A DNA stretch of 64,000 nucleotides from a virus. Lineage: Duplodnaviria > Caudoviricetes. This document shows, in pieces, positions 33,408 to 61,943 of this stretch. Below the pieces are notes generated by a model. It was given only the letters and a program-made list of their open reading frames with translations, was not told the DNA's origin and searched no databases. Position numbers and translations under genes: made by a program. The DNA lies in the IMG/VR virus record IMGVR_UViG_3300028888_000122, positions 7,976 to 71,975 of that record. One strand, written 5' to 3'. Each line of letters begins with the position of its first letter. Within the stretch, counting starts at the first letter, position 1.

Positions 33408-34028
33408 TTATTCCAGAACAAGCCCCGCCAAAACTTTCCAGATTCCGCGAATTGAAGAAAGCGGCACTTCGAACGGCACATACTTCTTGTTGTCGTTCAA
33501 AGAGTGGCACGTCACCTTTTCGGGCGAAGAGCCTGGTCTCAGTTCCTTGACAATAGCGCCGTTCACCGTGTCGATGACATAAACTTTGCCCCATTCGATG
33601 AAATCCGGGTCGTCAACGCGCCGGCAGAACAGCCTTGAGCCGCTCGGGTATTTCGGAGCCATGCTGTCCCCGCTCACCTCGATGGCCATTTCAGCGCCTT
33701 TCACGGGCGCGTGAACGCGTTCAAGTGACTTGACCGATGCGGAGTCCAACTGCTCGCTCAAAGCGCCTCCTAACGCGAACATATTGACGATAGGCACATT
33801 ATTATCAAAAGCCGTGTCGTTTTTGAACGGTTCCCCTTTCCCTGTCACAAGCCAGTCTATGTTCAGGTCGGGATACACAGAGGCGACGCCTTTGATTGCC
33901 TCAGACGAAAGATTCTTCACGCTATTGAAGTAAGCGTTACCTTTTCCGATTTTCTTTTCAAGACCGCTGATCGTGTCGCCTTTCATCCGCACGAACTCTT
34001 TAAGTCTTGCTTTTGTCTCGATTCCCAT
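33408..34028 (-). CDS. CI-like repressor with S24 autopeptidase domain
   Basis: N-terminal HTH (ISGLEKKIGKGNAYF; LNIDWLVTGKG); VSGDSMAP catalytic Ser; IVKEL Lys. Confidence 0.9.
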   Translation of the reverse strand: MGIETKARLKEFVRMKGDTISGLEKKIGKGNAYFNSVKNLSSEAIKGVASVYPDLNIDWLVTGKGEPFKNDTAFDNNVPIVNMFALGGALSEQLDSASVKSLERVHAPVKGAEMAIEVSGDSMAPKYPSGSRLFCRRVDDPDFIEWGKVYVIDTVNGAIVKELRPGSSPEKVTCHSLNDNKKYVPFEVPLSSIRGIWKVLAGLVLE

Positions 34029-34228: not shown

Positions 34229-34296
34229 TTTTGCATCACCAAACCGATAGTGATAGTCTAACCCACATATCATTTCGGCGACAAATTTATAAAGAA

Positions 34297-34515
34297 ATGT
34301 TGAAATTAGCAAACATAGTGACAAAAAAATATGTGAGTATCAGGGAAACCCTTCTCGCATTACCTCTCAACGATGAGCGATACATCGCCGAGGATGTCAT
34401 TGCGTCAATGGATATCCGCAAGACCGCGAGCAAGCTCAAGAAGCAAGGTCTGGGCGAGTGGAAAGTCCGCAAGCAGCGCGGTGTCAATGTCACGAGCATA
34501 ACGAGGTTGGCATGA
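34297..34515 (+). CDS. Cro-position small DNA-binding protein
   Basis: First gene after the rightward promoter; start reassigned to ATG 34297. Confidence 0.55.
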   Translation: MLKLANIVTKKYVSIRETLLALPLNDERYIAEDVIASMDIRKTASKLKKQGLGEWKVRKQRGVNVTSITRLA

Positions 34516-36703: not shown

Positions 36704-37117
36704 ATGGAAATCAAAGGAACATTAAAGAAAGTATGCCCTGTTGAGAATATCCAGGGCAAGACAGGTAACACATTCCAGAAGCGCGTCATCGTAGTCGATT
36801 GTTCAAGCGTTGACGATGTGACTGGTGAGATCAGAGAGAACATCCTCGCCTTCGAGACGAGCGGAAGGTTCGTCAACGACTACGACCGTTATGTCGGCAT
36901 GGAAGGCAAGGAAGTCACCGTGCGTTTCGGTATCAGCGGGCGAAGTTGGACGAACAGCGACGGCACCGAGAAGTATATGACGACATTGCGTCTCATCGGT
37001 CTCGTTATGCCCGACGCCATCCCCGCCGCCCCAAGTCCTCAACCAGCTCCACAGCCAGCACCACAGCCAAAGCCTGATTTCAATCAGACGCAGCAAGGGG
37101 ATGGGCTCCCATTTTAG
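36704..37117 (+). CDS. Single-stranded DNA-binding protein (DUF3127-like)
   Basis: OB-like N-terminus; PAPQ linker; acidic GDGLPF tail. Confidence 0.8.
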   Translation: MEIKGTLKKVCPVENIQGKTGNTFQKRVIVVDCSSVDDVTGEIRENILAFETSGRFVNDYDRYVGMEGKEVTVRFGISGRSWTNSDGTEKYMTTLRLIGLVMPDAIPAAPSPQPAPQPAPQPKPDFNQTQQGDGLPF

Positions 37118-48638: not shown

Positions 48639-49583
48639 TCATTTAAAGAACTGCAGTGTCGTCTCGTCGATTTCCTTGTCGGCGCAGATGTAGTTGCGCC
48701 ACGTGATCTGCGGGTCGGAGTGTCCCATGAGCCGTGCGATGGTCGTCACCGCAGAGCCATGCAGAAACAGGAGCGTGGCGAAAGTGCGCCGTCCCGTGTG
48801 AGACGACACGAACTGCCACTTCGGCCCTTGTTCCTCCGCTCCCCGCCTCGTCAGCGTCACAGGTTCGTTGATATGCGCCCTGCAACAGAGAGAGCGCAAC
48901 GTGTCGTTAAACGTAGCCATGCGTGTCACAGGTTCTTCGCTGTCATCCTTTGCGAGATACTGTCCAAGCCACCTGTGCAACGGCACAGTCACCTGGTTTC
49001 CCGTCTTGACAGCCCGGTAGGTCAACGACTTCTTGCGCGTGTTGGCATGCTTGGACGATATTCGCTCAGCGTCGATATGTCTGGCTCCAGTGAGCGCTTC
49101 AATCATGAACACACGTTTGACATAACGTTCCGTTGCGTTTATCGTGCGCACATCGTTAAGCCGCTCCAACTCATCCTGTGTAAGATACACCGCTTCTGAC
49201 GGGTTGCGCTTCATCTTCAAAGACCTGTTGATGTCGCACACCTCCAGCGGGTCTTTCCCCTTGTGTACATCATAGTTATTGGCGTTGAGCACCGCCTTGA
49301 CCTGTGAGCACAGAGTCTTTACCGAAGAAGGGCACCGTCCGTTACTCAGCGCTTCACGCAAGTCACGCAGGTTGCTGTCGGTGATGTCGTCCCACGTGGG
49401 CGCGTGACCGAGAACTGCCGAGAACACATCGAGCGTCTTGCCAGCGTTAGGCCACTTGGTGAGGAAGCGACCGATGAACGACTTTCGCCATTCACCGATG
49501 TCGTCCCCCTCGTTGTAGTAGCCTTTCTTTGTCGCCTTCTTGACCGCAAGCAACACCTCGAACGGATAATAGTTGTCGCTCAT
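48639..49583 (-). CDS. Second tyrosine recombinase, lacking an arm-binding domain
   Basis: TGARHID, SSHTGRRTFAT, LMGH, RNY: catalytic set intact. Confidence 0.85.
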   Translation of the reverse strand: MSDNYYPFEVLLAVKKATKKGYYNEGDDIGEWRKSFIGRFLTKWPNAGKTLDVFSAVLGHAPTWDDITDSNLRDLREALSNGRCPSSVKTLCSQVKAVLNANNYDVHKGKDPLEVCDINRSLKMKRNPSEAVYLTQDELERLNDVRTINATERYVKRVFMIEALTGARHIDAERISSKHANTRKKSLTYRAVKTGNQVTVPLHRWLGQYLAKDDSEEPVTRMATFNDTLRSLCCRAHINEPVTLTRRGAEEQGPKWQFVSSHTGRRTFATLLFLHGSAVTTIARLMGHSDPQITWRNYICADKEIDETTLQFFK

Positions 49584-49811: not shown

Positions 49812-50117
49812 TCAGCAAAAAAGATTTTTATTTTCAAGAAAATATGGTCTCCATCCGCATGTTTGCGTGATGTCACACCACACATCCTTGATGTTCTCCT
49901 CCCAGCCGTTGTCGATGTCCTCCTGGATGATGCCGATGTCCAACGTATTGGGCAGCGTGTAGAGGATGATGCGGCACTGGAACCAGTCATCGCGGAATGC
50001 GATGGTGTGGCGGTATCCTTCATCGTCCTCGCAGTCCAACACGAAATGTCGAGCTGCCCCTTCGCGTTCCCTGAGCACGAACTCCTCGAACTCCTCGAAA
50101 GTGAGATAATGTTTCAT
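49812..50117 (-). CDS. Hypothetical protein ending ENKNLFC
   Basis: Downstream of hammerhead 1. Confidence 0.65.
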   Translation of the reverse strand: MKHYLTFEEFEEFVLREREGAARHFVLDCEDDEGYRHTIAFRDDWFQCRIILYTLPNTLDIGIIQEDIDNGWEENIKDVWCDITQTCGWRPYFLENKNLFC

Positions 50118-50149
50118 TGTTTGATTGATTTATTAGTTAATAAAAGTTT

Positions 50150-50213
50150 GTTCCATACACCCGCAACACGTACGGGTGTTTCGTCGCCTTTCAGCGGTAC
50201 TCATCAGTGGAAC
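50150..50213 (-). ncRNA. Type I hammerhead ribozyme 1 (GUA site)
   Basis: GTTCCA-CTGATGA-stem II-GAAA-CACCCG/CGGGTG-TA-TGGAAC. Confidence 0.85.
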
Positions 50214-50215
50214 TT

Positions 50216-50452
50216 TTAAACATCGAACCCCATGTCGCCCGTCTCGTAGTCGGTACCATAGGCCTCGTTGCATCTTTCCATTTCACACTCAGGGATATAA
50301 GAATTCCCGTTAAACTAAAAGTCGCCCCGGTCGAGCACGTTGCGCAGAATTGTGCCACCCTGCGGATCTCCCGACATGAGGACGTCGTACTCCTCGTTGG
50401 TCACATGGATGAAGGCGCCGAGGCGCATCCACACTCTCCTGTTATTGTCCAT
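50216..50452 (-). pseudogene. 79-codon gene interrupted by an in-frame TAG at 50315-50317
   Basis: MDNNRRVWMRLG...LDRGDF*FNGNSYIPECE...GFDV. Confidence 0.6.
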
Positions 50453-50454
50453 AA

Positions 50455-50727
50455 TCAAAACATGTTGTTGTCGATAAGTTCTACTTTAGTGATGTCGAGT
50501 TTGAGCCCTTCGGTGTTGAAGTCCCATCCGATAAACGCATAATTCTCGGTGCGGTAAATCTCCGAAACGTCACGTCCGAACGCTTCCTCCTCCTTCATCT
50601 CGTTTTCAGCAATCTTGTTGAGTTTAGCCCTCGCCGCCTCTCTTGACTTGAAAGCATACGACTCAACCTCACCATTCGCTCCAGGGTCGGAGGAAATGCA
50701 AGTAACAGTTAAAATATAGAGTTCCAT
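50455..50727 (-). CDS. Hypothetical protein ending DNNMF
   Basis: Clean ORF. Confidence 0.65.
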   Translation of the reverse strand: MELYILTVTCISSDPGANGEVESYAFKSREAARAKLNKIAENEMKEEEAFGRDVSEIYRTENYAFIGWDFNTEGLKLDITKVELIDNNMF

Positions 50728-50737
50728 GTCTCACACA

Positions 50738-51382
50738 TTAAAAAAAGTTCTTGTCCTCGTCACCCATCAGTTGAATATCATCGCCGAAGTCAAAGCACTC
50801 GTCAGTTACATCATACGCAAACACATAGATGTAGTTGTCGGTGCCCTTGTTCTCGTCGTTGAACCGCTTGACCGCATCTGCATCGCCGTAGCCCGTGAAC
50901 TCACGGACAAAGTTATAGGCATCGTCCTCGGTAGAGAAATAGCCAGAGTGGTAGTCGTCGCCGATGCTGATATCCACAAAATACCGCTCGTTGAAGTACT
51001 TGCCTTCGGCATCGTTGGTCTGCAGTATTTGGCAAAACTCTTCCTGCAGGCTGTAATAGATGCCGATTCGTTTGAAGCGGATGCGAAGTGCCTCGGCGAA
51101 CTGCGTGCGGCTCCACGCCTCCTCCGTGCTGAACTTGAGCGCATTGTCGTCGATCCATATCGGTCGAGACGCGATGAACGCACGGAAATAGCCTAACGAC
51201 TTACCCTCTGCGTCTTCGGTTGGTATGCGCAACGCATGAAGTACGTTGCCCACCCAATCCTGTGCAGACATCTCCTGTTTGGGAAAATTGCCGTCTATCA
51301 CGTCGCAGATGGCCTTGTTGATACACTTGAGGTCTTCTTGTGAGCCCTCGATGACATAGTCGGTATAACACCAGTTTGGCAT
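50738..51382 (-). CDS. YubB/DUF1281-like ferredoxin-fold protein ending DKNFF
   Basis: MPNWC start; F.TEEAW motif. Confidence 0.65.
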   Translation of the reverse strand: MPNWCYTDYVIEGSQEDLKCINKAICDVIDGNFPKQEMSAQDWVGNVLHALRIPTEDAEGKSLGYFRAFIASRPIWIDDNALKFSTEEAWSRTQFAEALRIRFKRIGIYYSLQEEFCQILQTNDAEGKYFNERYFVDISIGDDYHSGYFSTEDDAYNFVREFTGYGDADAVKRFNDENKGTDNYIYVFAYDVTDECFDFGDDIQLMGDEDKNFF

Positions 51383-51403
51383 AGTTGTGATGAATTTTAA
51401 TTG

Positions 51404-51556
51404 TTAATAATCTGTGTCGCCTGTGAGATAGTCCCACACGTTCTGAATCTTGCACATCATGTGGTACAAATCGTCAGCGCCAGCATCTCCGGTTTCGTAA
51501 TCGGTTAATACGTGGCAAAACTCATTGCACACATCGTTCTTCTCCATTTGTGTCAT
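51404..51556 (-). CDS. 50-aa hypothetical protein (absent from the ORF track)
   Basis: MTQMEKNDVCNEFCHVLTDYE...; open frame filling the gap. Confidence 0.55.
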   Translation of the reverse strand: MTQMEKNDVCNEFCHVLTDYETGDAGADDLYHMMCKIQNVWDYLTGDTDY

Positions 51557-51567
51557 AGCCCTAATGA

Positions 51568-52047
51568 TTAATCATTAAACAAGTTATTGTCGTGTTGCTC
51601 GATTTGGCGGAACGCCTCATCGTATTGGTCTGCCACAACGCAGAAGCTGCCGTGACGTTCCTCGTAGGCATCGATACCAGCGGGGTTGTCGTCAACGCAC
51701 TCGATTGTTCCGTCGTCGTCACGGAAAAACAGAGCGATTTCAGTAATCGAGTAGATGAGCGCAGGATCGCCGTGCGTCCATCCGTGCACCTTGCGGTACA
51801 CAAACAGTTCGCTACCCTTGTTCAGCCCGATAATCTCCTGTCGTGCAGAAGCCCAACAATCGTTGACACACATGGAGAGTTCGTCCTCGTAGAAGCCAGA
51901 GGCATAGAGATTCCATCCGTTGCCATTGTTCACTTCGACGCAATAGGACGCGCCCTCATCTTCGACACGCATCGCGTAGCCGTACTGAGCGAGTTCATCG
52001 TTTGCGAACTCCAACAAAGACTGCCAATCATTGATTCTGTTAGCCAT
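51568..52047 (-). CDS. Hypothetical protein ending DNNLFND
   Basis: Downstream of hammerhead 2. Confidence 0.65.
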   Translation of the reverse strand: MANRINDWQSLLEFANDELAQYGYAMRVEDEGASYCVEVNNGNGWNLYASGFYEDELSMCVNDCWASARQEIIGLNKGSELFVYRKVHGWTHGDPALIYSITEIALFFRDDDGTIECVDDNPAGIDAYEERHGSFCVVADQYDEAFRQIEQHDNNLFND

Positions 52048-52082
52048 AATTGAATTGATTTTATTAGTTATTAATGTTAGTT

Positions 52083-52145
52083 ACTCCAGACACCCGCTGG
52101 CAGTCGGGTGTTTCGTCGCAATTCCCAGCGACTCATCAGTGGAGT
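52083..52145 (-). ncRNA. Type I hammerhead ribozyme 2 (GUC site)
   Basis: ACTCCA-CTGATGA-GTCGC/GCGAC-GAAA-CACCCG/CGGGTG-TC-TGGAGT. Confidence 0.92.
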
Positions 52146-52301
52146 TTACTCGTATTCGAGTGTGATTTCGATGATGTCTTGTATTGACATGAGTTCATAG
52201 CATTCGTCGCAACAACCGTATGAAGATGTTATCCAATGGGTCTCTTTGTCCCAATCTATCTCACGCCCACAGTTGTTACAGTGATATACATGTTTTTCCA
52301 T
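52146..52301 (-). CDS. 51-aa zinc-finger protein (absent from the ORF track)
   Basis: HCNNCG...CCDEC. Confidence 0.55.
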   Translation of the reverse strand: MEKHVYHCNNCGREIDWDKETHWITSSYGCCDECYELMSIQDIIEITLEYE

Positions 52302-52318
52302 GACGCCAAATTTGAATT

Positions 52319-52594
52319 TTAGAAACGGTAATAAAAGTTTACTTGCCAGATTTCGGCATTGTCACCAGTGTTGACGATATTTGCTTCGTTCTCGTACACG
52401 TCGCAAATCACCTCCCTGCCGTCGTTCTCTTCTTCTTTATTGAAGTTGCGCAGGTTATCGCAGATGCCCTTAATTTCTTTCTTGAAGAAATCACGGGCTT
52501 CTTGTTCATCACTAAACCACCTTATGGTCTGGCTGAAAGCGTCGTCGTAACGTTCCGTTGAAGTCGTCACAACGATAAAAACTTGATTGTCCAT
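52319..52594 (-). CDS. Hypothetical protein
   Basis: Start reassigned to MDNQVF, downstream of hammerhead 3. Confidence 0.6.
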   Translation of the reverse strand: MDNQVFIVVTTSTERYDDAFSQTIRWFSDEQEARDFFKKEIKGICDNLRNFNKEEENDGREVICDVYENEANIVNTGDNAEIWQVNFYYRF

Positions 52595-52628
52595 AATGAT
52601 TGAGTTTATTAGTTTGTAAAAGTTGATT

Positions 52629-52687
52629 GTTCTGGACACCGCCAACGCGTAGCGGTGTTTCGCCCATTGAGGGCTCGTCAGCAGAAC
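52629..52687 (-). ncRNA. Type I hammerhead ribozyme 3 (GUC site)
   Basis: GTTCTG-CTGACGA-GCCC/GGGC-GAAA-CACCGC/GCGGTG-TC-CAGAAC. Confidence 0.92.
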
Positions 52688-52828
52688 TTACTGTTTCCAC
52701 CATTCGGCAATCCATGACCGCTTGGCAATAGTGGGATACGTCTCCATTGCTTCTTTCAAAGTAGCACAATGCGTATTGAAAGCATACACACCATATTTCG
52801 TCCTAACCCAAACTTCTTTCATAGCCAT
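52688..52828 (-). CDS. Small hypothetical protein
   Basis: MAMKEVWVRTKYG...; start reassigned. Confidence 0.45.
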   Translation of the reverse strand: MAMKEVWVRTKYGVYAFNTHCATLKEAMETYPTIAKRSWIAEWWKQ

Positions 52829-52841
52829 AGCGATAATGAAT

Positions 52842-53240
52842 TTAATCAATGAAATCGGTGAAATCGTACACTTCGGTGCCGCCATCATAATCATACGGCC
52901 GCTTGCGCACTTCGTAGCCGAGCCACGAGCCGTAGTGTAGTCGCTTGAATATGTGATAGCCAGCATCACGCAACGCCTTAAACGCGGCTCTCATTTCTGC
53001 ACCATTGAACTTATATGACTGCTCGTCTTTGTGCCATGGCTCATGGTGGAAGCTTGAACCCTTGCCGTTGTGTAGGCAAACGAACAATGTTGCTCGGCGG
53101 TAGCACCCCTCGCTGTGGGGGTGAAACGTAGAGAAGGCCTTTTGTGCCAAGAACGCCTCGCAGATGGCTTGTACCACATGCGGTCTCACTTCGGTAGGTT
53201 GAACGTAGTCGTTTTTTGGAATGTTGATTGTGATTTCCAT
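52842..53240 (-). CDS. Hypothetical protein
   Basis: Downstream of hammerhead 4. Confidence 0.65.
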   Translation of the reverse strand: MEITINIPKNDYVQPTEVRPHVVQAICEAFLAQKAFSTFHPHSEGCYRRATLFVCLHNGKGSSFHHEPWHKDEQSYKFNGAEMRAAFKALRDAGYHIFKRLHYGSWLGYEVRKRPYDYDGGTEVYDFTDFID

Positions 53241-53274
53241 AATGATTGAATTTATAGATTAGTAAAAGTTAGTT

Positions 53275-53336
53275 ATTCCTGATGCCGGCACGAAGCCGAC
53301 ATTTCGTCTTAATTTTCAAAGACTCGTCAGAGGGAT
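53275..53336 (-). ncRNA. Type I hammerhead ribozyme 4 (AUC site)
   Basis: ATCCCT-CTGACGA-GTCTT/AAGAC-GAAA-TGTCGGC/GCCGGCA-TC-AGGAAT. Confidence 0.88.
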
Positions 53337-54101
53337 TTACGGCATCTCGTCGATGATGGTTCTCAGCATATCGAGCGACGTGCCTTGTTGGTTGACAAAC
53401 TCCAACAACTTGTCTTTGATGGTTGGCTGCTTGGGTACATCTGGAATCAATGAACCGTCGAGACCGATGATCTCAACAGACCCCTTCATCGTTGCTTGAG
53501 CTTGAGCGTATGTCGCAAAAACTTCGCGACCCCTGCAGAAGTGATCGGCAATGCAATCAAGAACCTCACGTTTTGTTTTTGGCGTTGAGATAAACTCTAC
53601 GACATTGTCCCTTTTCTCAGCTTGGTAAAGGCTGTGTGCGGGAACAAGCCTGTTGTTGACCTCGTCATATAACATAAAGTCAACATCAACACGCCCAGTT
53701 TGAATGCTTGTGCCTGATACGTAATGTCCATACACAACAAAAGAGCCACAAGCCCTGGAAGAAGAGTCGTCATTACAAAGGCCATAGACATCGACTTGTG
53801 CATCAGCTTTCTGTTTCTTAGCGATATTCCCCGCATAGAAATCATCTACAGAATTGTAGATGTCACACTTTTCGGAATATGAGCTTGAATGGTCAAGTGA
53901 CACATTCAAGTGAGTTGTGCATCTGCCTTCTTGTATTTTTAGCACGCCTAAATTGGTGTTGACGAACAATAAACACTGATGCCCATTCGCCATAGACATG
54001 AAGGTGCAGATGACTTTACCTGCGATAAGCTGGTTTTTGCCAAAAACGTTTGTGTGAAGATACACAGTTGAACCTTGTGGTAAAAAATAGACGTGATACA
54101 T
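53337..54101 (-). CDS. Hypothetical protein
   Basis: 254-aa ORF, more AT-rich than its neighbours. Confidence 0.65.
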   Translation of the reverse strand: MYHVYFLPQGSTVYLHTNVFGKNQLIAGKVICTFMSMANGHQCLLFVNTNLGVLKIQEGRCTTHLNVSLDHSSSYSEKCDIYNSVDDFYAGNIAKKQKADAQVDVYGLCNDDSSSRACGSFVVYGHYVSGTSIQTGRVDVDFMLYDEVNNRLVPAHSLYQAEKRDNVVEFISTPKTKREVLDCIADHFCRGREVFATYAQAQATMKGSVEIIGLDGSLIPDVPKQPTIKDKLLEFVNQQGTSLDMLRTIIDEMP

Positions 54102-54136
54102 AATTGATTTGATTTAAAAAGTTGATAAAGTTAGTA

Positions 54137-54240
54137 TTCGCAACCGCCGCCCGCCATTACAGGAAGGCGACACGCTCGTGGCTTGATGCGCTTGTACGTT
54201 CCGCCACGACGGAGTAGGCTATTTCGCACGGAAACGGCCC
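54137..54240 (-). ncRNA. Unassigned structured RNA in a ribozyme slot
   Basis: Stems TCGTGGC/GCCACGA and GTCGCC/GGCGGG; ACGAGCGT shared with 56664-56717. Confidence 0.4.
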
Positions 54241-54306
54241 TCTACGGCATTTTCTCGCCGCAGACGTAGAGTTAATCGTTTGAAGGGAATTTTGCGCTTA
54301 GAATTT

Positions 54307-54343
54307 AAAAAGACAGTCCCGCGCTTCCCAACGCAGGACTGCC
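54307..54343 (-). terminator. Intrinsic terminator
   Basis: GGCAGTCCTGCG/CGCGGGACTGTC stem plus T5. Confidence 0.7.
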
Positions 54344-54397
54344 ATCAACTATCTAATTTTATACATTATGTACAAATGTCTCAATCAAGAGACGGCG

Positions 54398-54429
54398 CAA
54401 AATTAGTGCTTAGTTTTGGATTGCGCAAA
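54398..54429 (-). promoter_or_regulatory. Sigma-A promoter
   Basis: TTTG-20nt-TAATTTTG. Confidence 0.65.
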
Positions 54430-54433
54430 TTTT

Positions 54434-54613
54434 TTACTCTACTTGTTCAATGTCTCTGTAGCCCGTACGGGCGTAGAGAATGTCGTTCATTGTCTCCTCG
54501 CTGTAGCCGTTGATGTCGGCAACGAGGCTGATTTCGGCTTCGGTAGCGATGCCGTTGTCGATGAGAAAATTCTTAACTCTTTCGCAATCTGTGTCGTGAT
54601 AGATGTAACTCAT
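54434..54613 (-). CDS. 59-aa hypothetical protein (absent from the ORF track)
   Basis: ...FLIDNGIATEAEISLVADINGYSEETMNDILYARTGYRDIEQ. Confidence 0.65.
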   Translation of the reverse strand: MSYIYHDTDCERVKNFLIDNGIATEAEISLVADINGYSEETMNDILYARTGYRDIEQVE

Positions 54614-54649
54614 AGTTCGATTGATTTGTCAGTTAGTAAATGCGGATAG

Positions 54650-54707
54650 TTGCCCGTCGAATGTCCGGCATTCGCTCGGCTCTGTTTTCAAGCCGATAAA
54701 CGGGCAA
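54650..54707 (-). ncRNA. Unassigned three-way-junction RNA, motif A copy 1
   Basis: P1 TTGCCCGT/ACGGGCAA; P2 TCGGCT-TGAAAACAG-AGCCGA; P3 CGAATG/CATTCG. Confidence 0.65.
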
Positions 54708-54716
54708 GACCGAACT

Positions 54717-55013
54717 TTAATCAGTGGTGCGGTAGTAATACTCGGCATCACTACCACTCAGGTTGTCGCAGCACCAATCGTGACACTCGTTCCACAGGTC
54801 GTTATAGACGCGTGCAACGTTCTCGTTCTTCTCGTACCACTGCCAAATCTTCCAATTCAGCACGAGCGAGAGTTCGGTGATGTACACGATGTTGCCCCTC
54901 CACTCGGTGAACGCGCGGTGGTAGGTGTCAACGATAGCGTCGGTGCCGAAGACCTCGGCAATCGAGAAGTCCTGCCAAAAGGTGGTCTTCGTTTCGTATC
55001 CATTCACATTCAT
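54717..55013 (-). CDS. Hypothetical protein
   Basis: TTFWQDFSIAE...ELSLVLNWKIWQWY...YYRTTD motif. Confidence 0.7.
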   Translation of the reverse strand: MNVNGYETKTTFWQDFSIAEVFGTDAIVDTYHRAFTEWRGNIVYITELSLVLNWKIWQWYEKNENVARVYNDLWNECHDWCCDNLSGSDAEYYYRTTD

Positions 55014-55024
55014 AGCAATAGGTA

Positions 55025-55372
55025 TTAATGGTTAAACAAATTCTTGTCTTGGTTTAACAATTCAGGTTTAATCTCGCCATACAGGTAGTCGTCGGTGCAC
55101 ATGAAGCAGAAATAGTCCGCCATAGGCTTGCCTTTCCAATACGGAACTGTTACGTATCCGTTTTGTTTCCACTCGTTCTCATAGCGCCCATCATCAATCT
55201 CTGTGTGATTGAACACGTTGCAGTTAATGGCGCGAACTGCATATTCTTCGTAATCATAGAATAATCCTACGCCTGACATGCAGAGTGCAGCAATCGCATT
55301 CTCTGCGAGTTCCAACAATGCCTTTTGCTCAGGAGTGAGTTGGATGAGTTTTTTGATGATTTCTTCATTCAT
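55025..55372 (-). CDS. Hypothetical protein ending DKNLFNH
   Basis: Start reassigned to MNEE. Confidence 0.65.
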   Translation of the reverse strand: MNEEIIKKLIQLTPEQKALLELAENAIAALCMSGVGLFYDYEEYAVRAINCNVFNHTEIDDGRYENEWKQNGYVTVPYWKGKPMADYFCFMCTDDYLYGEIKPELLNQDKNLFNH

Positions 55373-55404
55373 AGTCGTAAAGTTTAAGTTAATAATGTTC
55401 ATTG

Positions 55405-55462
55405 CCGCCCGCAGAATATCCGATATTCACGCGCGTCTGTTTTCAACGCGCTATGCGGGCGA
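55405..55462 (-). ncRNA. Unassigned three-way-junction RNA, motif A copy 2
   Basis: P1 TCGCCCGCA/TGCGGGCGG; P2 GCGCGT-TGAAAACAG-ACGCGC; P3 GAATAT/ATATTC. Confidence 0.65.
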
Positions 55463-55466
55463 GTCC

Positions 55467-55760
55467 TTAAAAGAGGTTCTTGTCTTGCTTTTGGAAGTTT
55501 CCTTCCAGCCAACGGATGGAATAGTTACATACCGCTTCAACGTACTCATGGTACAGGTAGCATAAAATGCGGGTCTTCGGACTGTCATAGTTGCCCCACA
55601 TATCAACGATACACAACTCGTCGCCTTGTAATTTCAGTCCGAGCAGGTCTGGCTCGCCAGATTTGTCATCGTACGGAAGAGTGAGATGCAGCGGTTTGGG
55701 AAACATTATCGTTCCTCCGTTTTTCTTGCAGTAATCAATAAGGGTTTCAATCTTGTCCAT
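55467..55760 (-). CDS. Hypothetical protein ending DKNLF
   Basis: Start reassigned to MDKIET. Confidence 0.65.
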   Translation of the reverse strand: MDKIETLIDYCKKNGGTIMFPKPLHLTLPYDDKSGEPDLLGLKLQGDELCIVDMWGNYDSPKTRILCYLYHEYVEAVCNYSIRWLEGNFQKQDKNLF

Positions 55761-55786
55761 ATCAAAGTTGATTTTAATAGTTAGTA

Positions 55787-55842
55787 CATTGCTGTGCGTG
55801 TGCTCTCGCTGCACAATGCGCGGTCGTACCGCTCACGCACAA
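55787..55842 (-). ncRNA. Unassigned three-way-junction RNA, motif B copy 1
   Basis: TTGTGCGT-GA-GCGG-TACGA-CCGC-GCATT-GTGC-AGCGAGA-GCAC-ACGCACAG-CAATG. Confidence 0.65.
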
Positions 55843-55847
55843 TCCGA

Positions 55848-56096
55848 TTAGAACAGGTTTCTGTCGATGAACACCTCACCCGACAGTTTCTCGAGTATCT
55901 CTTTCTTGGTCTCGCAGGGCAGCCCCGAGAAGCAGAACAAAAGACCTGGTGTGCTTACGTACACGTACCCATTGAAAAGTGTGAAATGCTCTATGCGATG
56001 TTTAGACGCCAACGTCTCAATATACAGCACTGCTTTCGGCTTGTAACTTCCGCCAGCGTTAAACAGGAATTTTTTCAGTCTTTCTTCCATGATCAA
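55848..56096 (-). CDS. Hypothetical protein ending DRNLF
   Basis: Clean coupled ORF. Confidence 0.6.
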   Translation of the reverse strand: MIMEERLKKFLFNAGGSYKPKAVLYIETLASKHRIEHFTLFNGYVYVSTPGLLFCFSGLPCETKKEILEKLSGEVFIDRNLF

Positions 56097-56356
56097 AACA
56101 GGTTCTTGTCACGCTTTGGCGCTTTGATGGCGTTATACACGTCGGTGATATATTCGTCTTGGCAATTGTCGAGTTCGAACTCGCCTTCCTCGCCTCCTGG
56201 AAACGTTGAGTATGTGATATACACTTTGCCAGCGCAAATACTCAAACCGAGGATGTTGACAAGTTCACCGTCGTACATGTCGATGTACTCATAGGTGCCG
56301 GCATCCCCGCTCTCGATGAGAGCGCGGATTTCGCTAATCATTTGCTTGGTATCCAT
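56093..56356 (-). CDS. Hypothetical protein ending DKNLF
   Basis: Clean ORF. Confidence 0.65.
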   Translation of the reverse strand: MDTKQMISEIRALIESGDAGTYEYIDMYDGELVNILGLSICAGKVYITYSTFPGGEEGEFELDNCQDEYITDVYNAIKAPKRDKNLF

Positions 56357-56360
56357 AATA

Positions 56361-56639
56361 CTAAAACATGTTTTTGTCGATTTTGATGTTCTCTCGAATT
56401 TTCGCGATTAGCGATTGGAGATAGTCGATGTCGTGATCACGCAAGTAGTCGTTGCGATAGTTAAATTGTCCAAGCCTCACGCTGTACTGGTCGAAAAAGA
56501 CATCGTTGTCTTCAACGTGGATGTTCTGAGCCCGTAGGATGTTGGTCATTGAGCCATACTGCACATCGAAATGCAGGCCATTGAGCAGGCCTTTCTCACA
56601 ATACGTTTTGATTTCACTGATGATTTCTTTTGTATTCAT
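56361..56639 (-). CDS. Hypothetical protein ending DKNMF
   Basis: Clean ORF. Confidence 0.65.
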   Translation of the reverse strand: MNTKEIISEIKTYCEKGLLNGLHFDVQYGSMTNILRAQNIHVEDNDVFFDQYSVRLGQFNYRNDYLRDHDIDYLQSLIAKIRENIKIDKNMF

Positions 56640-56663
56640 ATCGTCAAAGTTTAAAAGTTAGTA

Positions 56664-56717
56664 CATTGTCAGGGCGGGGAGTTGCGGACTCCCTACAACG
56701 CTCGTACTTCGCCCCGA
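56664..56717 (-). ncRNA. Unassigned structured RNA in a ribozyme slot
   Basis: TCGGGGCG/CGCCCTGA enclosing AAGTACGAGCGTTGTA and GGGAGT/ACTCCC; ends CAATG like motif B. Confidence 0.5.
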
Positions 56718-56721
56718 TTGA

Positions 56722-57012
56722 TTAGAAGAGATTTTTGTCACGAGGATTTAATAAATCCTTGACCTGGTCGTAGATGTAGGCTGCGTTGCGCACTCCCTTG
56801 CTGTCGTAGTCGTACAGATGATACCCTTCCGGTGCGTTACACGCAGGCGTGCTGTACATTATCACTTGCGAGTCGGTTGGATATGCCCATATCTCGACAA
56901 CTTCATACTCGTTCCACGAGTCATCTAAACACAGCCGAACGTTAGGCGTTTTCAACGGCCCGTTCTCTCGGAGCAGGCTCCATAATTCTTTGAATTTTTC
57001 TGAGTGTGTCAT
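56722..57012 (-). CDS. Hypothetical protein ending DKNLF
   Basis: Clean ORF. Confidence 0.65.
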   Translation of the reverse strand: MTHSEKFKELWSLLRENGPLKTPNVRLCLDDSWNEYEVVEIWAYPTDSQVIMYSTPACNAPEGYHLYDYDSKGVRNAAYIYDQVKDLLNPRDKNLF

Positions 57013-57041
57013 AACTGATTGAATTTAAAGTTAGTAATTAG

Positions 57042-57093
57042 CATTGGTGGGCGGTCTCGCTCCGCCATGCCAGGTCGTTCCTGTCACACCAAT
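57042..57093 (-). ncRNA. Unassigned three-way-junction RNA, motif B copy 2
   Basis: ATTGGTG-TGA-CAGG-AACGA-CCTG-GCAT-GGCGG-AGCGAGA-CCGCC-CACCAAT-G. Confidence 0.65.
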
Positions 57094-57101
57094 CCATTGT
57101 G

Positions 57102-58166
57102 TCATTTCACCTCGGCGACCTCCTCCGCATCGCAGTAGTAACACTCGAGATGCTGGAGTGCGTCCTCAAAATCGTAGTAGTTGAGGTCGGGAAATTCAGC
57201 CTTCCACGAATCGTAGAAACCGACAACGTCGAAACCGTCGGGATCGTTGTACCAATCCAGGTACATCATCTCAACGAGTTCATCGAATTGCCTGGCAATC
57301 TCTCCATCTTCTGCATCACCGCTCATAGAGCGCGACGAAGGCCACGAATCGTAGATGTCTCCGTATCCGTACCAATCATCATCGTTCCAGCCCCTGTGGA
57401 AGCCACCGTAGACGGAATAACTGCGTTGCGCCTTGTGCGGACACACATCGGTCACTGTGTCGATGATGTGGAACACCAGGTCACGGCAGTTGCACAACTC
57501 TGAGAAAATCGTCGTTTCCTCGCTTGTGTGCGGATTGTAGTAACCGCACGACAGGTTACACGCAGCGACAGAGAGCCCGCGCGACTTGAGTTCCATGACA
57601 TCGGTCATCATCCCCGTGGCTTTCTTGTAGCCGAAACGCGCCATGTCAATCTTTGACATAAAACCATCGTCGCACAGTTCCCATCCGCTGGCGTTGCTGA
57701 TGAAGTCAGACGAGCCACGGCGGTCGCATTGGACAACAAAACGGCAGTCGCTGAAAAACGACATATCGGCCTGGCTGCTGCCCACGCATCCGATTTCCTC
57801 GCCCACGAACAGGGCGACTTTCACAGCGTCATACCTGAGCAAGCACTGCATGGCTACCCAGATGCCGTTCTTGTCGTCGGCACCGATGCCATACTGCGAC
57901 TTGCTGTCAAGGTCGAAACCGAAGATATAGTCGTCGGCTCTCGCCACGCGGAATTGGTTGTTTCGTTCGCGGTGCACCTCGTCGATGTGAGCGACAACGC
58001 AGGGAAAACTCTCTGCTATGCCCTTTGTGACGTATATGCCGCTCTGGTCGCTAACGACCTTTGCCGACGGCACATTCTCCTTGAGCCAGCCCTTGAGATA
58101 CTTGCGCATCTTTTTCTCCTGACCACTGTGACTTGACACGTAATAAAGTTTGATTAAATCTTTCAT
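57102..58166 (-). CDS. M20/M28-family zinc peptidase-like protein
   Basis: VAHIDEVH, GADDKNG, GEEIGC, YYNPHT metal-ligand motifs. Confidence 0.8.
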   Translation of the reverse strand: MKDLIKLYYVSSHSGQEKKMRKYLKGWLKENVPSAKVVSDQSGIYVTKGIAESFPCVVAHIDEVHRERNNQFRVARADDYIFGFDLDSKSQYGIGADDKNGIWVAMQCLLRYDAVKVALFVGEEIGCVGSSQADMSFFSDCRFVVQCDRRGSSDFISNASGWELCDDGFMSKIDMARFGYKKATGMMTDVMELKSRGLSVAACNLSCGYYNPHTSEETTIFSELCNCRDLVFHIIDTVTDVCPHKAQRSYSVYGGFHRGWNDDDWYGYGDIYDSWPSSRSMSGDAEDGEIARQFDELVEMMYLDWYNDPDGFDVVGFYDSWKAEFPDLNYYDFEDALQHLECYYCDAEEVAEVK

Positions 58167-58200
58167 AATAGTACACTGATTAAAGTTAGTAAAAGTTAGT

Positions 58201-58245
58201 TTGTTCCCGGGCGGGGAATCGAACCCCGCCGAAAACCATTCGGGA
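58201..58245 (-). ncRNA. Minimal tRNA mimic (5-bp acceptor + 7-bp T-stem)
   Basis: TCCCG-AATGGTTTTC-GGCGGGG-TTCGATT-CCCCGCC-CGGGA-ACAA. Confidence 0.65.
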
Positions 58246-58247
58246 GA

Positions 58248-59858
58248 TTAGGCAACGTCAGCCAGGTAGTACGTGCCGCAGATTTCAACGCAGTCGTCGG
58301 ACAGCGCATCGACGAACTTGCCGAAACGCCTGTCAAACGCGCGCACGCAGTCGTCCTTGTGGAAGAAATGTCCATCGATCTTGACTGCGTCTTCGAGGAG
58401 AATGGTCTCGCAGTTGTTGGTCTCGACGGTCTCGCTCTCGAGCGCATAAGCCCACGAGCCATAGATGTCATAGTCGAGTTCCTTGCACTCGTCGCTGGGA
58501 GCGTACTCGCCCTCGTGCTCACCGTGAGAGAGTTCGTAGCAATCGTCTCGCAACACATTACGGTCATCGTAATCCGTGACGAGATCATCGTCATCATAGT
58601 AGGCGTATTGTCCCTCGTGCTCGCCAGCTTCGATGATACGCGCGTCGTCGAAGTGACAATAGGTGTTGTCGTAGAGGCAATAGGTATCATCGCACAGGTA
58701 GTACGAATCAGTGTGCTCGCAATAGTACGCATCGTCTTCGTGGCACCACATGTCACGATATTCGAGATACACGCAGTCGTCGTCGTCGTACCACTCATCG
58801 TCACGCTCTACGTAGCGCTCTCCGTCACGGAGTTCTCCGTCACGTCCTCGCTGGCCAGGAACGATACGTCCCGTGATAGCGAGGTCGATGTCGCCGTCGC
58901 AGGTTTCCCAATTGACGGCACGCTCATCGTCGCATTGGAGCCAGCGGAAACCGTCCTGGAACGAGAGCGTGTCGCCCGGCTGTGCCGTGCAGCGCACCCA
59001 CAGTCGGCTGTTGTTGAGTTTCGTTCCGTCCAACAGGACGTACGAGCGGTTATCCCAACAAGAGCACTCGAACTGCTTGTGTCCGTCAATCTTGTTCTGC
59101 TCGGCGAGCAAATAGATCAACTGTCGGCGCGCCTCGGAGTTCTCTCCGTACTGACGCTCAGCCAGCCTGTACGTCTTCTCGCTGTGATCCTCGTCGTGAA
59201 CAGCCGTCCACACGATACAACGAGCGATGAGTTTATCTCCGTCCCACAGCCCTGCTGCAAGCGCGTCAGGCATAGAGTCGCGGTAGAATTTCCACTGACC
59301 CTTGTCGTTCATGCACGAGCCGAAATTGCTGTGTCCGCTGTAGATTTTCTCGAAATCCCTGTCGAGCGTCAGACGGTAGCGCCCGTCGCCCGCGTGACCG
59401 GCACGATAGATGGCGCTGAGTTGCTCAGCGAAATACACGCGCACGGGTTCGGGATATTCGGGATGCGTCTCGTCGATGATACGGCGGAAAAACTTCCCGC
59501 ATTTCATCTTGAAGACACGGTTCACGTCACACTTGACGTAACGGATGCTCAGCGGGTCTCCGTCAGCGCACACACCGTTGCGGTCGTCCGTCTTGTACAC
59601 TTCGCTGTGAGCGTAGATGTACTTGTCGGTCAGTTCCTCGGGTTTCCCCTGGATGTGGATGCTGATGTTAGGCTCGCTTACGGCATCGTCGCGGAAACGC
59701 TTGCCGACGTAGTTTACCACGCCCTGCAGATCGTCCACGGCGACAGCCTCGTCGTCGTTGTTCTCAAAACCCCACGCCCAGAGGGCTGTGATGATGTTTG
59801 AGTACGTACGGTTACCTTTTCTCTCCTCGATTCTCTTGATTAATTCTTCTTGTTCCAT
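58248..59858 (-). CDS. Large protein with a PcfJ-like region and an acidic Cys/His/Tyr repeat C-terminus
   Basis: SCMNDKG...IARCIVW...LAERQY; repeated DDCV/CxxT units; start reassigned to MEQEE. Confidence 0.65.
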   Translation of the reverse strand: MEQEELIKRIEERKGNRTYSNIITALWAWGFENNDDEAVAVDDLQGVVNYVGKRFRDDAVSEPNISIHIQGKPEELTDKYIYAHSEVYKTDDRNGVCADGDPLSIRYVKCDVNRVFKMKCGKFFRRIIDETHPEYPEPVRVYFAEQLSAIYRAGHAGDGRYRLTLDRDFEKIYSGHSNFGSCMNDKGQWKFYRDSMPDALAAGLWDGDKLIARCIVWTAVHDEDHSEKTYRLAERQYGENSEARRQLIYLLAEQNKIDGHKQFECSCWDNRSYVLLDGTKLNNSRLWVRCTAQPGDTLSFQDGFRWLQCDDERAVNWETCDGDIDLAITGRIVPGQRGRDGELRDGERYVERDDEWYDDDDCVYLEYRDMWCHEDDAYYCEHTDSYYLCDDTYCLYDNTYCHFDDARIIEAGEHEGQYAYYDDDDLVTDYDDRNVLRDDCYELSHGEHEGEYAPSDECKELDYDIYGSWAYALESETVETNNCETILLEDAVKIDGHFFHKDDCVRAFDRRFGKFVDALSDDCVEICGTYYLADVA

Positions 59859-59891
59859 AACGAAAAAACTGATTAGTTGATAAAAGTTAGC

Positions 59892-59938
59892 TGTGTTCCC
59901 TGTGGAAGAGTCGGACTGCCACAAAGCACCATGCAGGG
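59892..59938 (-). ncRNA. Minimal tRNA mimic (5-bp acceptor + 7-bp T-stem)
   Basis: TCCCT-GCATGGTGCTTT-GTGGCAG-TCCGACT-CTTCCAC-AGGGA-ACAC. Confidence 0.55.
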
Positions 59939-59942
59939 AAAA

Positions 59943-60320
59943 TTAGGCGACAAACAGGTTTTTGTCGCGCTTTCTGTCTGAGCGGGTAGTGGGGCGCTCG
60001 TAGTCGCGCAGAATGCTCTGGAGCGGGGCGTCGGTAAATTGCATACCCGTATCCCAATACCACACTCCACGACATTGGTAGATGCTCCTGTTGAAGCGTT
60101 CGAGCAGAGCGTTCAACCTGGATTTGGTTGTTCGTGTGCGCCAACCAGCTGACGAGAGGTAAAGAACTGACGCGTGTAGATGAACAAGCGCAATCAAATT
60201 CTCGTGCAGATACACAGCAGCGAGCGTTCCGTTCGCAACTATCTCGACGCGCGTGTTAGAGCGACGCCAATTACGCCGAAGGCTTATAGCCTCCAGCATT
60301 TCTTGTTCGATAATTTTCAT
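59943..60320 (-). CDS. Hypothetical protein ending DKNLFVA
   Basis: LHENLIA...SSAGWRTRTTKSRLNALL motif. Confidence 0.7.
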   Translation of the reverse strand: MKIIEQEMLEAISLRRNWRRSNTRVEIVANGTLAAVYLHENLIALVHLHASVLYLSSAGWRTRTTKSRLNALLERFNRSIYQCRGVWYWDTGMQFTDAPLQSILRDYERPTTRSDRKRDKNLFVA

Positions 60321-60348: not shown

Positions 60349-60412
60349 GTTCTGGACGGCTGCGACGCGCACAGCCGTTTCGTCGCAATTTCCAGCGACT
60401 CGTCAGCAGAAC
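60349..60412 (-). ncRNA. Type I hammerhead ribozyme 5 (GUC site)
   Basis: GTTCTG-CTGACGA-GTCGC/GCGAC-GAAA-CGGCTG/CAGCCG-TC-CAGAAC. Confidence 0.92.
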
Positions 60413-60908: not shown

Positions 60909-60972
60909 GTTCCAGACGCTGTCAACGCGTGACAGCGTTTCGTCGCAATTTTCAGCGACTCATCAGTGGAAC
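60909..60972 (-). ncRNA. Type I hammerhead ribozyme 6 (GUC site; predicted cut between 60915 and 60914)
   Basis: GTTCCA-CTGATGA-GTCGC/GCGAC-GAAA-CGCTGTCA/TGACAGCG-TC-TGGAAC. Confidence 0.93.
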
Positions 60973-61881: not shown

Positions 61882-61943
61882 GTTCACCCACATTTTTGTG
61901 ACGCTCTGAGCCTAAGAACCTGTTTTGAGTCGCTCAGACGACT
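61882..61943 (-). ncRNA. Pistol ribozyme
   Basis: P1 AGTCG/CGACT with loop TCTGAG pairing to CTCAGA (pseudoknot), AAAA linker, P2 GTTC/GAAC, GCGT, P3 CAC/GTG, GGT cleavage junction. Confidence 0.82.

Follow-up and report, generated by a model that had tools for sequence, protein, structure and literature searches.

In a 64,000-nt phage sequence (Caudoviricetes; positions 7976-71975 of the 71,975-bp IMG/VR record IMGVR_UViG_3300028888_000122, which is estimated to be 87% complete), here referred to as the window, eleven proteins encoded by a single minus-strand gene array were found to end in a short peptide tag of the form D[KRN]N[LMF]F. We infer that one common reader recognises this tag and tentatively favor, at a probability of about 0.4, a role in non-degradative docking on a common hub, for which the host beta sliding clamp would be the preferred candidate. 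The tag matches none of the known motif definitions, and a full-text literature search revealed no relevant published description of it.

A common peptide at the C-termini of array-encoded proteins

Six-frame translation of the whole 71,975-bp record gave 10 matches to D[KRN]N[LMF]F, all of which (10/10) were in frame, 0-2 residues from a stop codon and on minus-strand genes located between positions 50455 and 60320 of the window. An eleventh copy, on gene 49812-50117, is degenerate and ends ENKNLFC, with N replacing D. Thus defined, the tag is carried by 11 of the 21 genes within 49812-60320. By the same translation, plus-strand, structural, replication and lysogeny genes were found to have none. 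Shuffling the residues of the 29 array proteins yielded 0.0185 matches anywhere and 0.00045 near the C-terminus, and shuffled genomes gave 0.1 six-frame matches with a maximum of 1. An earlier note made from the sequence of the window had listed the eleven C-termini and had reported varied synonymous codons, the use of TAA, TGA and TAG stops and the absence of the tag from structural and replication genes; all of these were confirmed on re-reading. The carriers were also described there as early proteins, which they presumably are, judging from the position of their genes.

In five related phage loci (the window together with L035, L036, L038 and L039), the consensus of the tag was [KR/I]-D-[KR]-N-[L/M]-F followed by 0-2 residues. 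Among 47 distinct tags, the residue before the Asp (-3) is characteristically R or I, the Asp slot (-2) is filled by D in 39, N in 6 and Q in 1, and the basic slot (-1) is K or R in 40. The Asn and the Phe are each invariant (47/47), and the slot between them is occupied by L (43), M (3) or F (1). No residue follows the Phe in 30 of 49 tagged proteins, and 1-2 variable residues follow it in the other 19; several variants end NLFH or NLFNH. The motif as first proposed is real and C-terminal, and its invariant core is better written as N-[L/M]-F, preceded by D and K/R.

Relatedness of the carriers and modularity of the tag

With the tag removed, the tagged proteins were sorted by BLASTP into 16-17 families. 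Profile comparison by hhalign placed families 1, 3, 9 and 12 in a single superfamily (SF-A, 69-93% probability) and also joined families 2 and 8, leaving ~12 groups that had no similarity detectable by BLASTP and hhalign. Similarity outside the tail, which would point to shared ancestry, was found only within SF-A and between families 2 and 8. The only related pair in the window is 56093-56356 and 56361-56639 (BLASTP E 8e-4 over the N-termini; hhalign 69% between families). Hence the statement that the eleven carriers are unrelated does not hold for these two, which are remote paralogues, and stands for the other nine, for which no similarity was detected after removal of the tag.

The tag was found to persist where the remainder of the protein diverges. 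In family alignment A4 (23-55% identity), the D, N, L and F of the tag account for 4 of the 11 invariant columns. In SF-A alignment A6 (18-67% identity), invariance is restricted to a single Gly and to the N and F of the tag, and across A6 and A7 together (17-86% identity) no columns other than this N and F are invariant in both alignments. Each of the SF-A homologues detected in the databases (14/14) ends in the tag. In the Kyano_Gp96 family, a freely varying linker of ~20 residues separates the domain from the tag; homologues of 49-95% identity retain D[KRSD]N[LV]F[VCS]A and more distant ones end directly after the domain. Homologues of the 214-aa protein with 46-73% identity have an acidic linker of ~20 residues and [IPV]D[TR]NLF, and those with 27-35% identity terminate before both. 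Related phages also encode 261-350-aa proteins whose C-terminal part is the domain of 55025-55402, in this case without the tag. Because two of these three families show a gain of linker and tag in this clade alone and the third has a domain that is both tagged and untagged, the tag behaves, in these comparisons of sequence, as a separate and portable module.

Structure prediction with AlphaFold2 (AF2) assigned to the Kyano_Gp96 protein a predicted local distance difference test (pLDDT) score of >90 for residues 1-110 and of <50 for residues 113-125, which bear the tag. The SF-A protein 56361-56639 was modeled with a mean pLDDT of 93; its tag occupies the end of the final helix, which frays, with a score of 52 for residues 91-92. 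In these models, the tag is predicted to be exposed in a disordered or fraying C-terminal end. The proposal that the tag is a short linear motif is supported by this position and by its portability on unrelated proteins. A PDB fold search with the Kyano_Gp96 and SF-A models gave no match at E <= 0.001.

Selection on the amino acids of the tag

Codon usage was counted in the 49 tags of the five related phages, and every degenerate codon position was found to vary. The basic residue is encoded by AAA, AAG, AGA, CGC, CGT and CGA, and all six codons are in use for Leu. Asn is encoded by AAC and AAT at 36:13, in line with the 75:25 background, and Phe by TTT and TTC at 25:24, TTT being somewhat enriched. 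All three stop codons (TAA, TGA and TAG) occur after the tag, the sequence 3' of the stop is not conserved, and the gap to the next start codon ranges from an overlap to ~85 nt. Because every degenerate position varies and neither the post-stop sequence nor the gene spacing is conserved, selection acts on the amino acids of the tag. The earlier claim of selection on a peptide and not on a DNA repeat is supported by this codon variation and by retention of the tag in diverging families. The sole excess at the nucleotide level was at the Asp, for which GAC and GAT occur at 40:1 compared to the 75:25 background; this excess is marginal once orthology is discounted.

It might still be argued that what is conserved at the gene ends is a nucleic-acid element, such as a site of translation coupling or RNA processing or a recombination linker for cassette shuffling, or that the tag is a leftover of common ancestry. 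The GAC excess and the slight enrichment of TTT would suit this explanation, as would the placement of several tags only 3-15 nt before the next start codon and, with regard to ancestry, the remote paralogy of some tagged families. By contrast, the codon variation extends to AGA versus CGN and CTN versus TTR, the distance to the next gene is as variable as described above, and no nucleotide conservation beyond the need of the peptide was detected in the tag, its flanks or the sequence after the stop. The 15-nt pattern occurs nowhere else in the genome and viral-contig scans gave chance matches only, including an IMG/VR scan with the tag-plus-stop DNA (30 stretches, all chance). A DNA-motif version was rejected, as GACAARAAYCTNTTY was found only at four tags genome-wide. 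Ancestry is opposed by at least ~12 families that remain unrelated after profile comparison and by the untagged distant homologues of two of them. An origin as nucleic-acid element or ancestral leftover is already largely refuted and retains hardly any probability.

Distribution of the tag among related phages

Homologues of the 125-aa Kyano_Gp96 protein led to four related-phage contigs with the same gene order, which in all tag-clade loci consists of the Kyano_Gp96-tag gene, a gene for a 536-aa protein, a peptidase gene and the array of small genes. In the five loci, 49 of 106 array genes are tagged and represent ~12 independent families. A scan of JGI metagenomes with a two-tag DNA pattern detected two further members of the clade (L130 and L134), one of which has six tagged genes inside 2.2 kb, as well as nine chance matches. 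IMG/VR was also searched by protein, with the Kyano_Gp96-tag protein and the peptidase as queries, and no relatives were found.

LoVEphage and Dulem virus 40, the closest relatives in culture, are similar to the phage of the window in genome size and architecture and have only the integrase in common with its array; no C-terminal tag was found in either, apart from one chance match on a 31-codon open reading frame (ORF) of Dulem virus 40. Among the ORFs called in 80 IMG/VR loci with the 536-aa family, three chance N[LMF]F singletons near a C-terminus and no other shared C-terminal motif were detected. Enrichment at C-termini in relatives, the test by which the earlier note proposed to be judged, was thus observed in the relatives and was absent in the outgroups. 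Taken together, these counts show the tag to be specific to one narrow clade of LoVEphage-like temperate phages. Because all tagged phages form one clade, this specificity represents a single evolutionary event.

Phage, host and genomic setting

The large terminase of the phage shares 59.5% identity with the terminases of LoVEphage (a Bacteroides phage) and of two prophages obtained by induction, BI-TP1 (Bacteroides intestinalis) and PV4-TP1 (Phocaeicola vulgatus), and 52% identity with that of Dulem virus 40. Bacteroidetes-type promoters (TTTG-N17-23-TAnnTTTG) were found at 7 sites compared to 1.46 expected, and the phage genes are without Shine-Dalgarno sequences. Based on terminase kinship to LoVEphage, these promoters and the missing Shine-Dalgarno sequences, the host is likely a member of the Bacteroidota. 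Scans of genome contigs with the peptidase and of metagenomes with the two-tag pattern detected no prophage in a host genome and none that was host-flanked. The phage is temperate, with genes for a tyrosine integrase and for a LexA-like repressor of the S24 type (Table 1). Its annotated replication and recombination genes are those of an ERF protein, RecE-like exonuclease, SSB, NinB, O-like initiator, RuvC and D5-type helicase. No DNA polymerase is present among the annotated phage genes, and no clamp domain was found in the phage.

The minus-strand array extends from ~64000 down to 47880, terminates at the integrase and is transcribed divergently from the D5 helicase operon (as seen in related loci). 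Matches to self-cleaving ribozymes were found on the coding strand in intergenic slots of the tagged array. One Pistol ribozyme, at 58 bits, exceeds the Rfam gathering score. Five further matches are at or below this threshold, namely another Pistol (33.1 bits) and type-I hammerheads (three, at 29.5-33.5 bits), all of them just under it, and a weak RAGATH-1 hammerhead. An internal promoter is suggested by one of the Bacteroidetes-type sites, which falls within the array and 5' of 53337-54101.

Table 1. Tagged genes and other features of the window.
Positions	Strand	Feature	Remarks
59943-60320	-	Tagged, 125 aa, ends RDKNLFVA	Kyano_Gp96 domain at residues 1-91 (Pfam PF23790, E 3e-22), variable linker, tag
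56722-57012	-	Tagged, 96 aa, ends RDKNLF	Family alignment A4
56361-56639	-	Tagged, 92 aa, ends IDKNMF	Superfamily SF-A, alignments A6 and A7
56093-56356	-	Tagged, 87 aa, ends RDKNLF	Remote paralogue of 56361-56639
55848-56090	-	Tagged, 80 aa, ends IDRNLF	L036 orthologue ends FDRNLF
55467-55814	-	Tagged, up to 115 aa, ends QDKNLF	Orthologues end ADRNLF and PDKNLF
55025-55402	-	Tagged, 125 aa, ends QDKNLFNH	Domain also exists untagged
51568-52047	-	Tagged, 159 aa, ends HDNNLFND	L038 orthologue ends HDKNLFND
50738-51382	-	Tagged, 214 aa, ends EDKNFF	MPNWC-start domain family
50455-50727	-	Tagged, 90 aa, ends IDNNMF	Strict-motif match
49812-50117	-	Tagged (degenerate), 101 aa, ends ENKNLFC	L035 orthologue keeps ENKNLFN
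57102-58166	-	Metallopeptidase, untagged, 354 aa	Catalytic domain at residues 2-237 and C-terminal ~115 aa; phrog_4191 'peptidase', E 2.6e-50
58248-59858	-	Acidic, Cys/Tyr-rich protein, untagged, 536 aa	Large uncharacterised viral family
48639-49583		Tyrosine integrase	Marks temperate phage
33408-34028		S24 LexA-like repressor	Marks temperate phage
36704-37117	+	Phage SSB	C-terminal GDGLPF, which resembles a canonical SSB tip and differs from the DKNLF tag
61882-61943	-	Ribozyme match	Rfam
60909-60972	-	Ribozyme match	Rfam
60349-60412	-	Ribozyme match	Rfam
54139-54214	-	Ribozyme match	Rfam
52629-52687	-	Ribozyme match	Rfam
50151-50236	-	Ribozyme match	Rfam
54398-54429	-	Bacteroidetes-type promoter	Consensus match
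34282-34313	-	Bacteroidetes-type promoter	Consensus match
	+	Bacteroidetes-type promoter, five more sites	Consensus match

Untagged neighbors of the tagged genes

Two untagged genes of the array, those of the metallopeptidase and the 536-aa protein, were compared to related loci. The tblastn matches of the metallopeptidase are annotated as M20/M25/M40, peptidase T or aminopeptidase, and its metal-binding and catalytic residues are invariant. The catalytic part was found in 85 of 86 loci and the C-terminal ~115 residues were matched only in the 5 tag-clade loci. At E <= 1e-3, the family of the 536-aa protein comprises 400 representative clusters. This protein had no match in Pfam or among PDB sequences and no named match in the ESM Atlas, with PcfJ and BSD2_CRD as the only weak leads. 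The gene for the 536-aa protein is accompanied by that of an M20/M28-type peptidase in 79 of 80 IMG/VR loci (L046-L125). Because 79-80 loci carry the pair with no tag, the two genes form a widespread, conserved module that has no need of it. A link between the tag and the 536-aa family was considered and rejected, as the 80 loci have neither tags nor any other shared C-terminal 3-mer. The 'M28 peptidase' that the earlier note had pointed to as a possible partner is a genuine M20/M28-type phage peptidase by its phrog_4191 and tblastn matches; a general tie to the tag is not upheld, since the same 79-80 loci are untagged.

The untagged array proteins (54717-55013, 57102-58166 and 58248-59858, all on the minus strand) are acidic, aromatic and Cys-rich, and most of them end in acidic residues. 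The isoelectric points of the 536-aa protein and the peptidase are 4.5 and 4.6, respectively, and the 98-aa protein of 54717-55013 matches the 536-aa protein by BLASTP at E 0.002. A scan of genome contigs with the peptidase gave a single match (L040), on a metagenome-assembled contig labelled Thermoguttaceae from goat duodenum. In this different phage (region L040:1591-4641, plus strand), eight tandem paralogues (138-152 aa) that end W-[VI]-[ED]-E-D-D-D-F-L-T and a basic tail are encoded upstream of the peptidase homologue; the small genes downstream of it end in Glu-rich tails, and the contig has no DKNLF tag.

Comparison with known terminal motifs

The principle of a shared terminal peptide that engages one partner is already known from clamp clients, phage T4 gp45 clients, phage T7 tails and degrons. 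T7 gp2.5 and gp4 have acidic C-terminal tails that end in Phe and dock on one partner. The T4 gp45 clients gp43, gp33 and gp55 resemble the proteins described here in that they are unrelated phage proteins with a shared short C-terminal tail for docking on one partner (PMC2988020). These T4 and T7 proteins differ in that they function in replication or transcription, have a phage-encoded partner and, in T7, end in acidic tails, whereas the tag is on small accessory proteins and the tail is not acidic. The SSB tip (D-D-D-I-P-F type) resembles the tag in its order of acidic residue, hydrophobic residue and terminal Phe. The tag differs from it in having no Pro-Phe, a basic residue inside and up to two residues after the Phe, and an acidic run leading to [IL]-P-F at a free C-terminus is not found in the tag. 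Because the tag tolerates up to two residues after its Phe, a reader that binds the free carboxylate is unlikely.

Beta-clamp motifs (QL[SD]LF, QLNLF of the Pol V subunit UmuC, and those of phage Mu MuC and Mor) are similar to the tag in that they are five-residue motifs in disordered termini by which many unrelated clients engage one hub. Positions 3-5 of the tag match these motifs, including the alternation of L and M and the Asn as in QLNLF (PMC11139829, PMC12867686, PMC3716654). The differences are D/N instead of Q, K/R instead of an aliphatic residue, the invariant Asn and the constant location of the tag <=2 residues from the C-terminus. The canonical clamp motif, Q-aliphatic-x-[L/M]-[F/L], is five or six residues long and is often in disordered C-terminal tails; its LF moiety binds by itself, and its Gln is important yet not essential (PMC11139829; PMC3716654). 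The Asn of Pol V QLNLF contacts clamp residue Arg152 and is functionally critical (PMC11139829), and the Mu proteins MuC and Mor have Qx[DE][LM]F, of which Mor has only DLF (PMC12867686).

Candidate readers of the tag

We propose that the clade may have appended the tag to about a dozen unrelated small accessory proteins, encoded in one ribozyme-punctuated leftward array that ends at the integrase, and that one reader would handle the changing set of tagged proteins as a group. On the host clamp, N-[L/M]-F would occupy hydrophobic subsite I as the NLF of the Pol V motif QLNLF does, and the D and K/R would stand in for the Gln and aliphatic residues that bind subsite II. Dependence on host clamps is suggested because the phage is without its own polymerase or clamp. 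The 47 distinct tags agree with clamp motifs in [L/M]-[F/L] at positions 4-5, and the AF2 pLDDT scores agree with a disordered terminus or loop. Several points weigh against docking on the clamp. Gln, expected at position 1, is found there in only 1 of the 47 tags (D 39, N 6), and a Gln-to-Glu change in the clamp motif strongly cuts peptide affinity (PMC11139829). At position 2 the expected aliphatic residue is replaced by K/R in 40/47, and the Asn of the tag is invariant (47/47) while clamp motifs normally place no constraint on position 3. A reason for a dozen small accessory proteins all to associate with the clamp is hard to see, clade specificity counts as one evolutionary event, and the facts fit a degron equally well. 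No canonical clamp motif (Qx[DESN][LM]F or QLxLF) was found in any ORF of the phage. A 565-aa LoVEphage protein annotated as 'beta sliding clamp' was considered and rejected, as no ORF of the phage matches it by tblastn and no clamp domain is present. In its most specific form, in which D-K/R-N-L-F would be a Gln-less, non-canonical clamp-binding peptide that serves a clade of temperate gut phages of the Bacteroidota as an address code to load the fast-evolving accessory set onto the host beta sliding clamp, the docking proposal is doubtful.

The main rival to a docking tag is a degron, by which a host AAA+ protease (Lon-like, ClpXP or FtsH) would read the exposed N-L-F end and keep the accessory proteins short-lived. 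Such turnover would suit a temperate phage that clears host-takeover or anti-defence proteins on entering lysogeny. The tag is an exposed and portable terminal peptide, as AAA+ degrons are, with a hydrophobic-aromatic end; it is carried only by small accessory proteins of the operon ending at the integrase and never by enzymes or by structural, replication or lysogeny proteins. The Lon degron of SulA, Sul20, ends …IHSNLYH, its final aromatic residues driving binding to the Lon N-domain (PMC8087443), and is likewise an exposed, portable C-terminal N-L-aromatic(-H) end, which the tag variants NLFH and NLFNH resemble further. By contrast, this likeness spans only 3-4 residues and comes from a distant host, and Lon recognition is loosely hydrophobic (PMC8087443), which predicts neither the invariant Asn nor the conserved D-[KR] of a tag that is sharply defined. 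A degron is possible, if on balance unlikely. The reader could also be phage-encoded, with either the metallopeptidase (by its clade-specific C-terminal region) or the 536-aa protein binding the tag or trimming it or its 0-2 extra residues. The conserved order of Kyano_Gp96-tag, 536-aa and peptidase genes and tag array in all tag-clade loci is consistent with this, as are the restriction of matches to the peptidase C-terminal ~115 residues to these loci and the invariant metal-binding and catalytic residues. However, the 79-80 IMG/VR loci have the same pair with neither the tag nor another shared C-terminal motif, peptidases from elsewhere are about as long at the C-terminus and have simply diverged there, and the phyletic link amounts to one clade and one event; a reader of this type is improbable. 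Even less can be said for a virion-loading or ejection signal, by which the tagged proteins would be packed in the capsid and injected with the DNA. The concept has precedents in encapsulin cargo peptides and phage internal proteins and was among the roles proposed in the earlier note. The tagged genes are, however, on the strand opposite the structural module in an operon running to the integrase, the tag is neither on nor next to structural proteins, and known phage capsid-targeting signals are N-terminal; this explanation is very unlikely. The remaining probability falls to readings other than those considered here. Thus, docking on a common hub, with the host beta sliding clamp preferred, remains the interpretation that we favor.

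Significance

Terminal peptides that route unrelated proteins to one partner organise replication, as for clamp and SSB clients, and proteolysis, as for degrons. Here, a phage lineage has tagged about one half of the genes in its accessory array, and some of the domains concerned occur elsewhere without the tag. If the tag does bind the clamp, it would provide the phage with a 'tool belt' that puts anti-defence or takeover factors on replicating DNA, and the definition of the clamp-binding motif would be widened. Irrespective of its partner, the tag is a practical handle on the whole set of proteins at once. LoVEphage is among the most prevalent temperate phages of the human gut, and the identity of the reader would give a common mode of action to a dozen uncharacterised proteins in its relatives and could reveal a host hub that is exploited by phages of the Bacteroidota.

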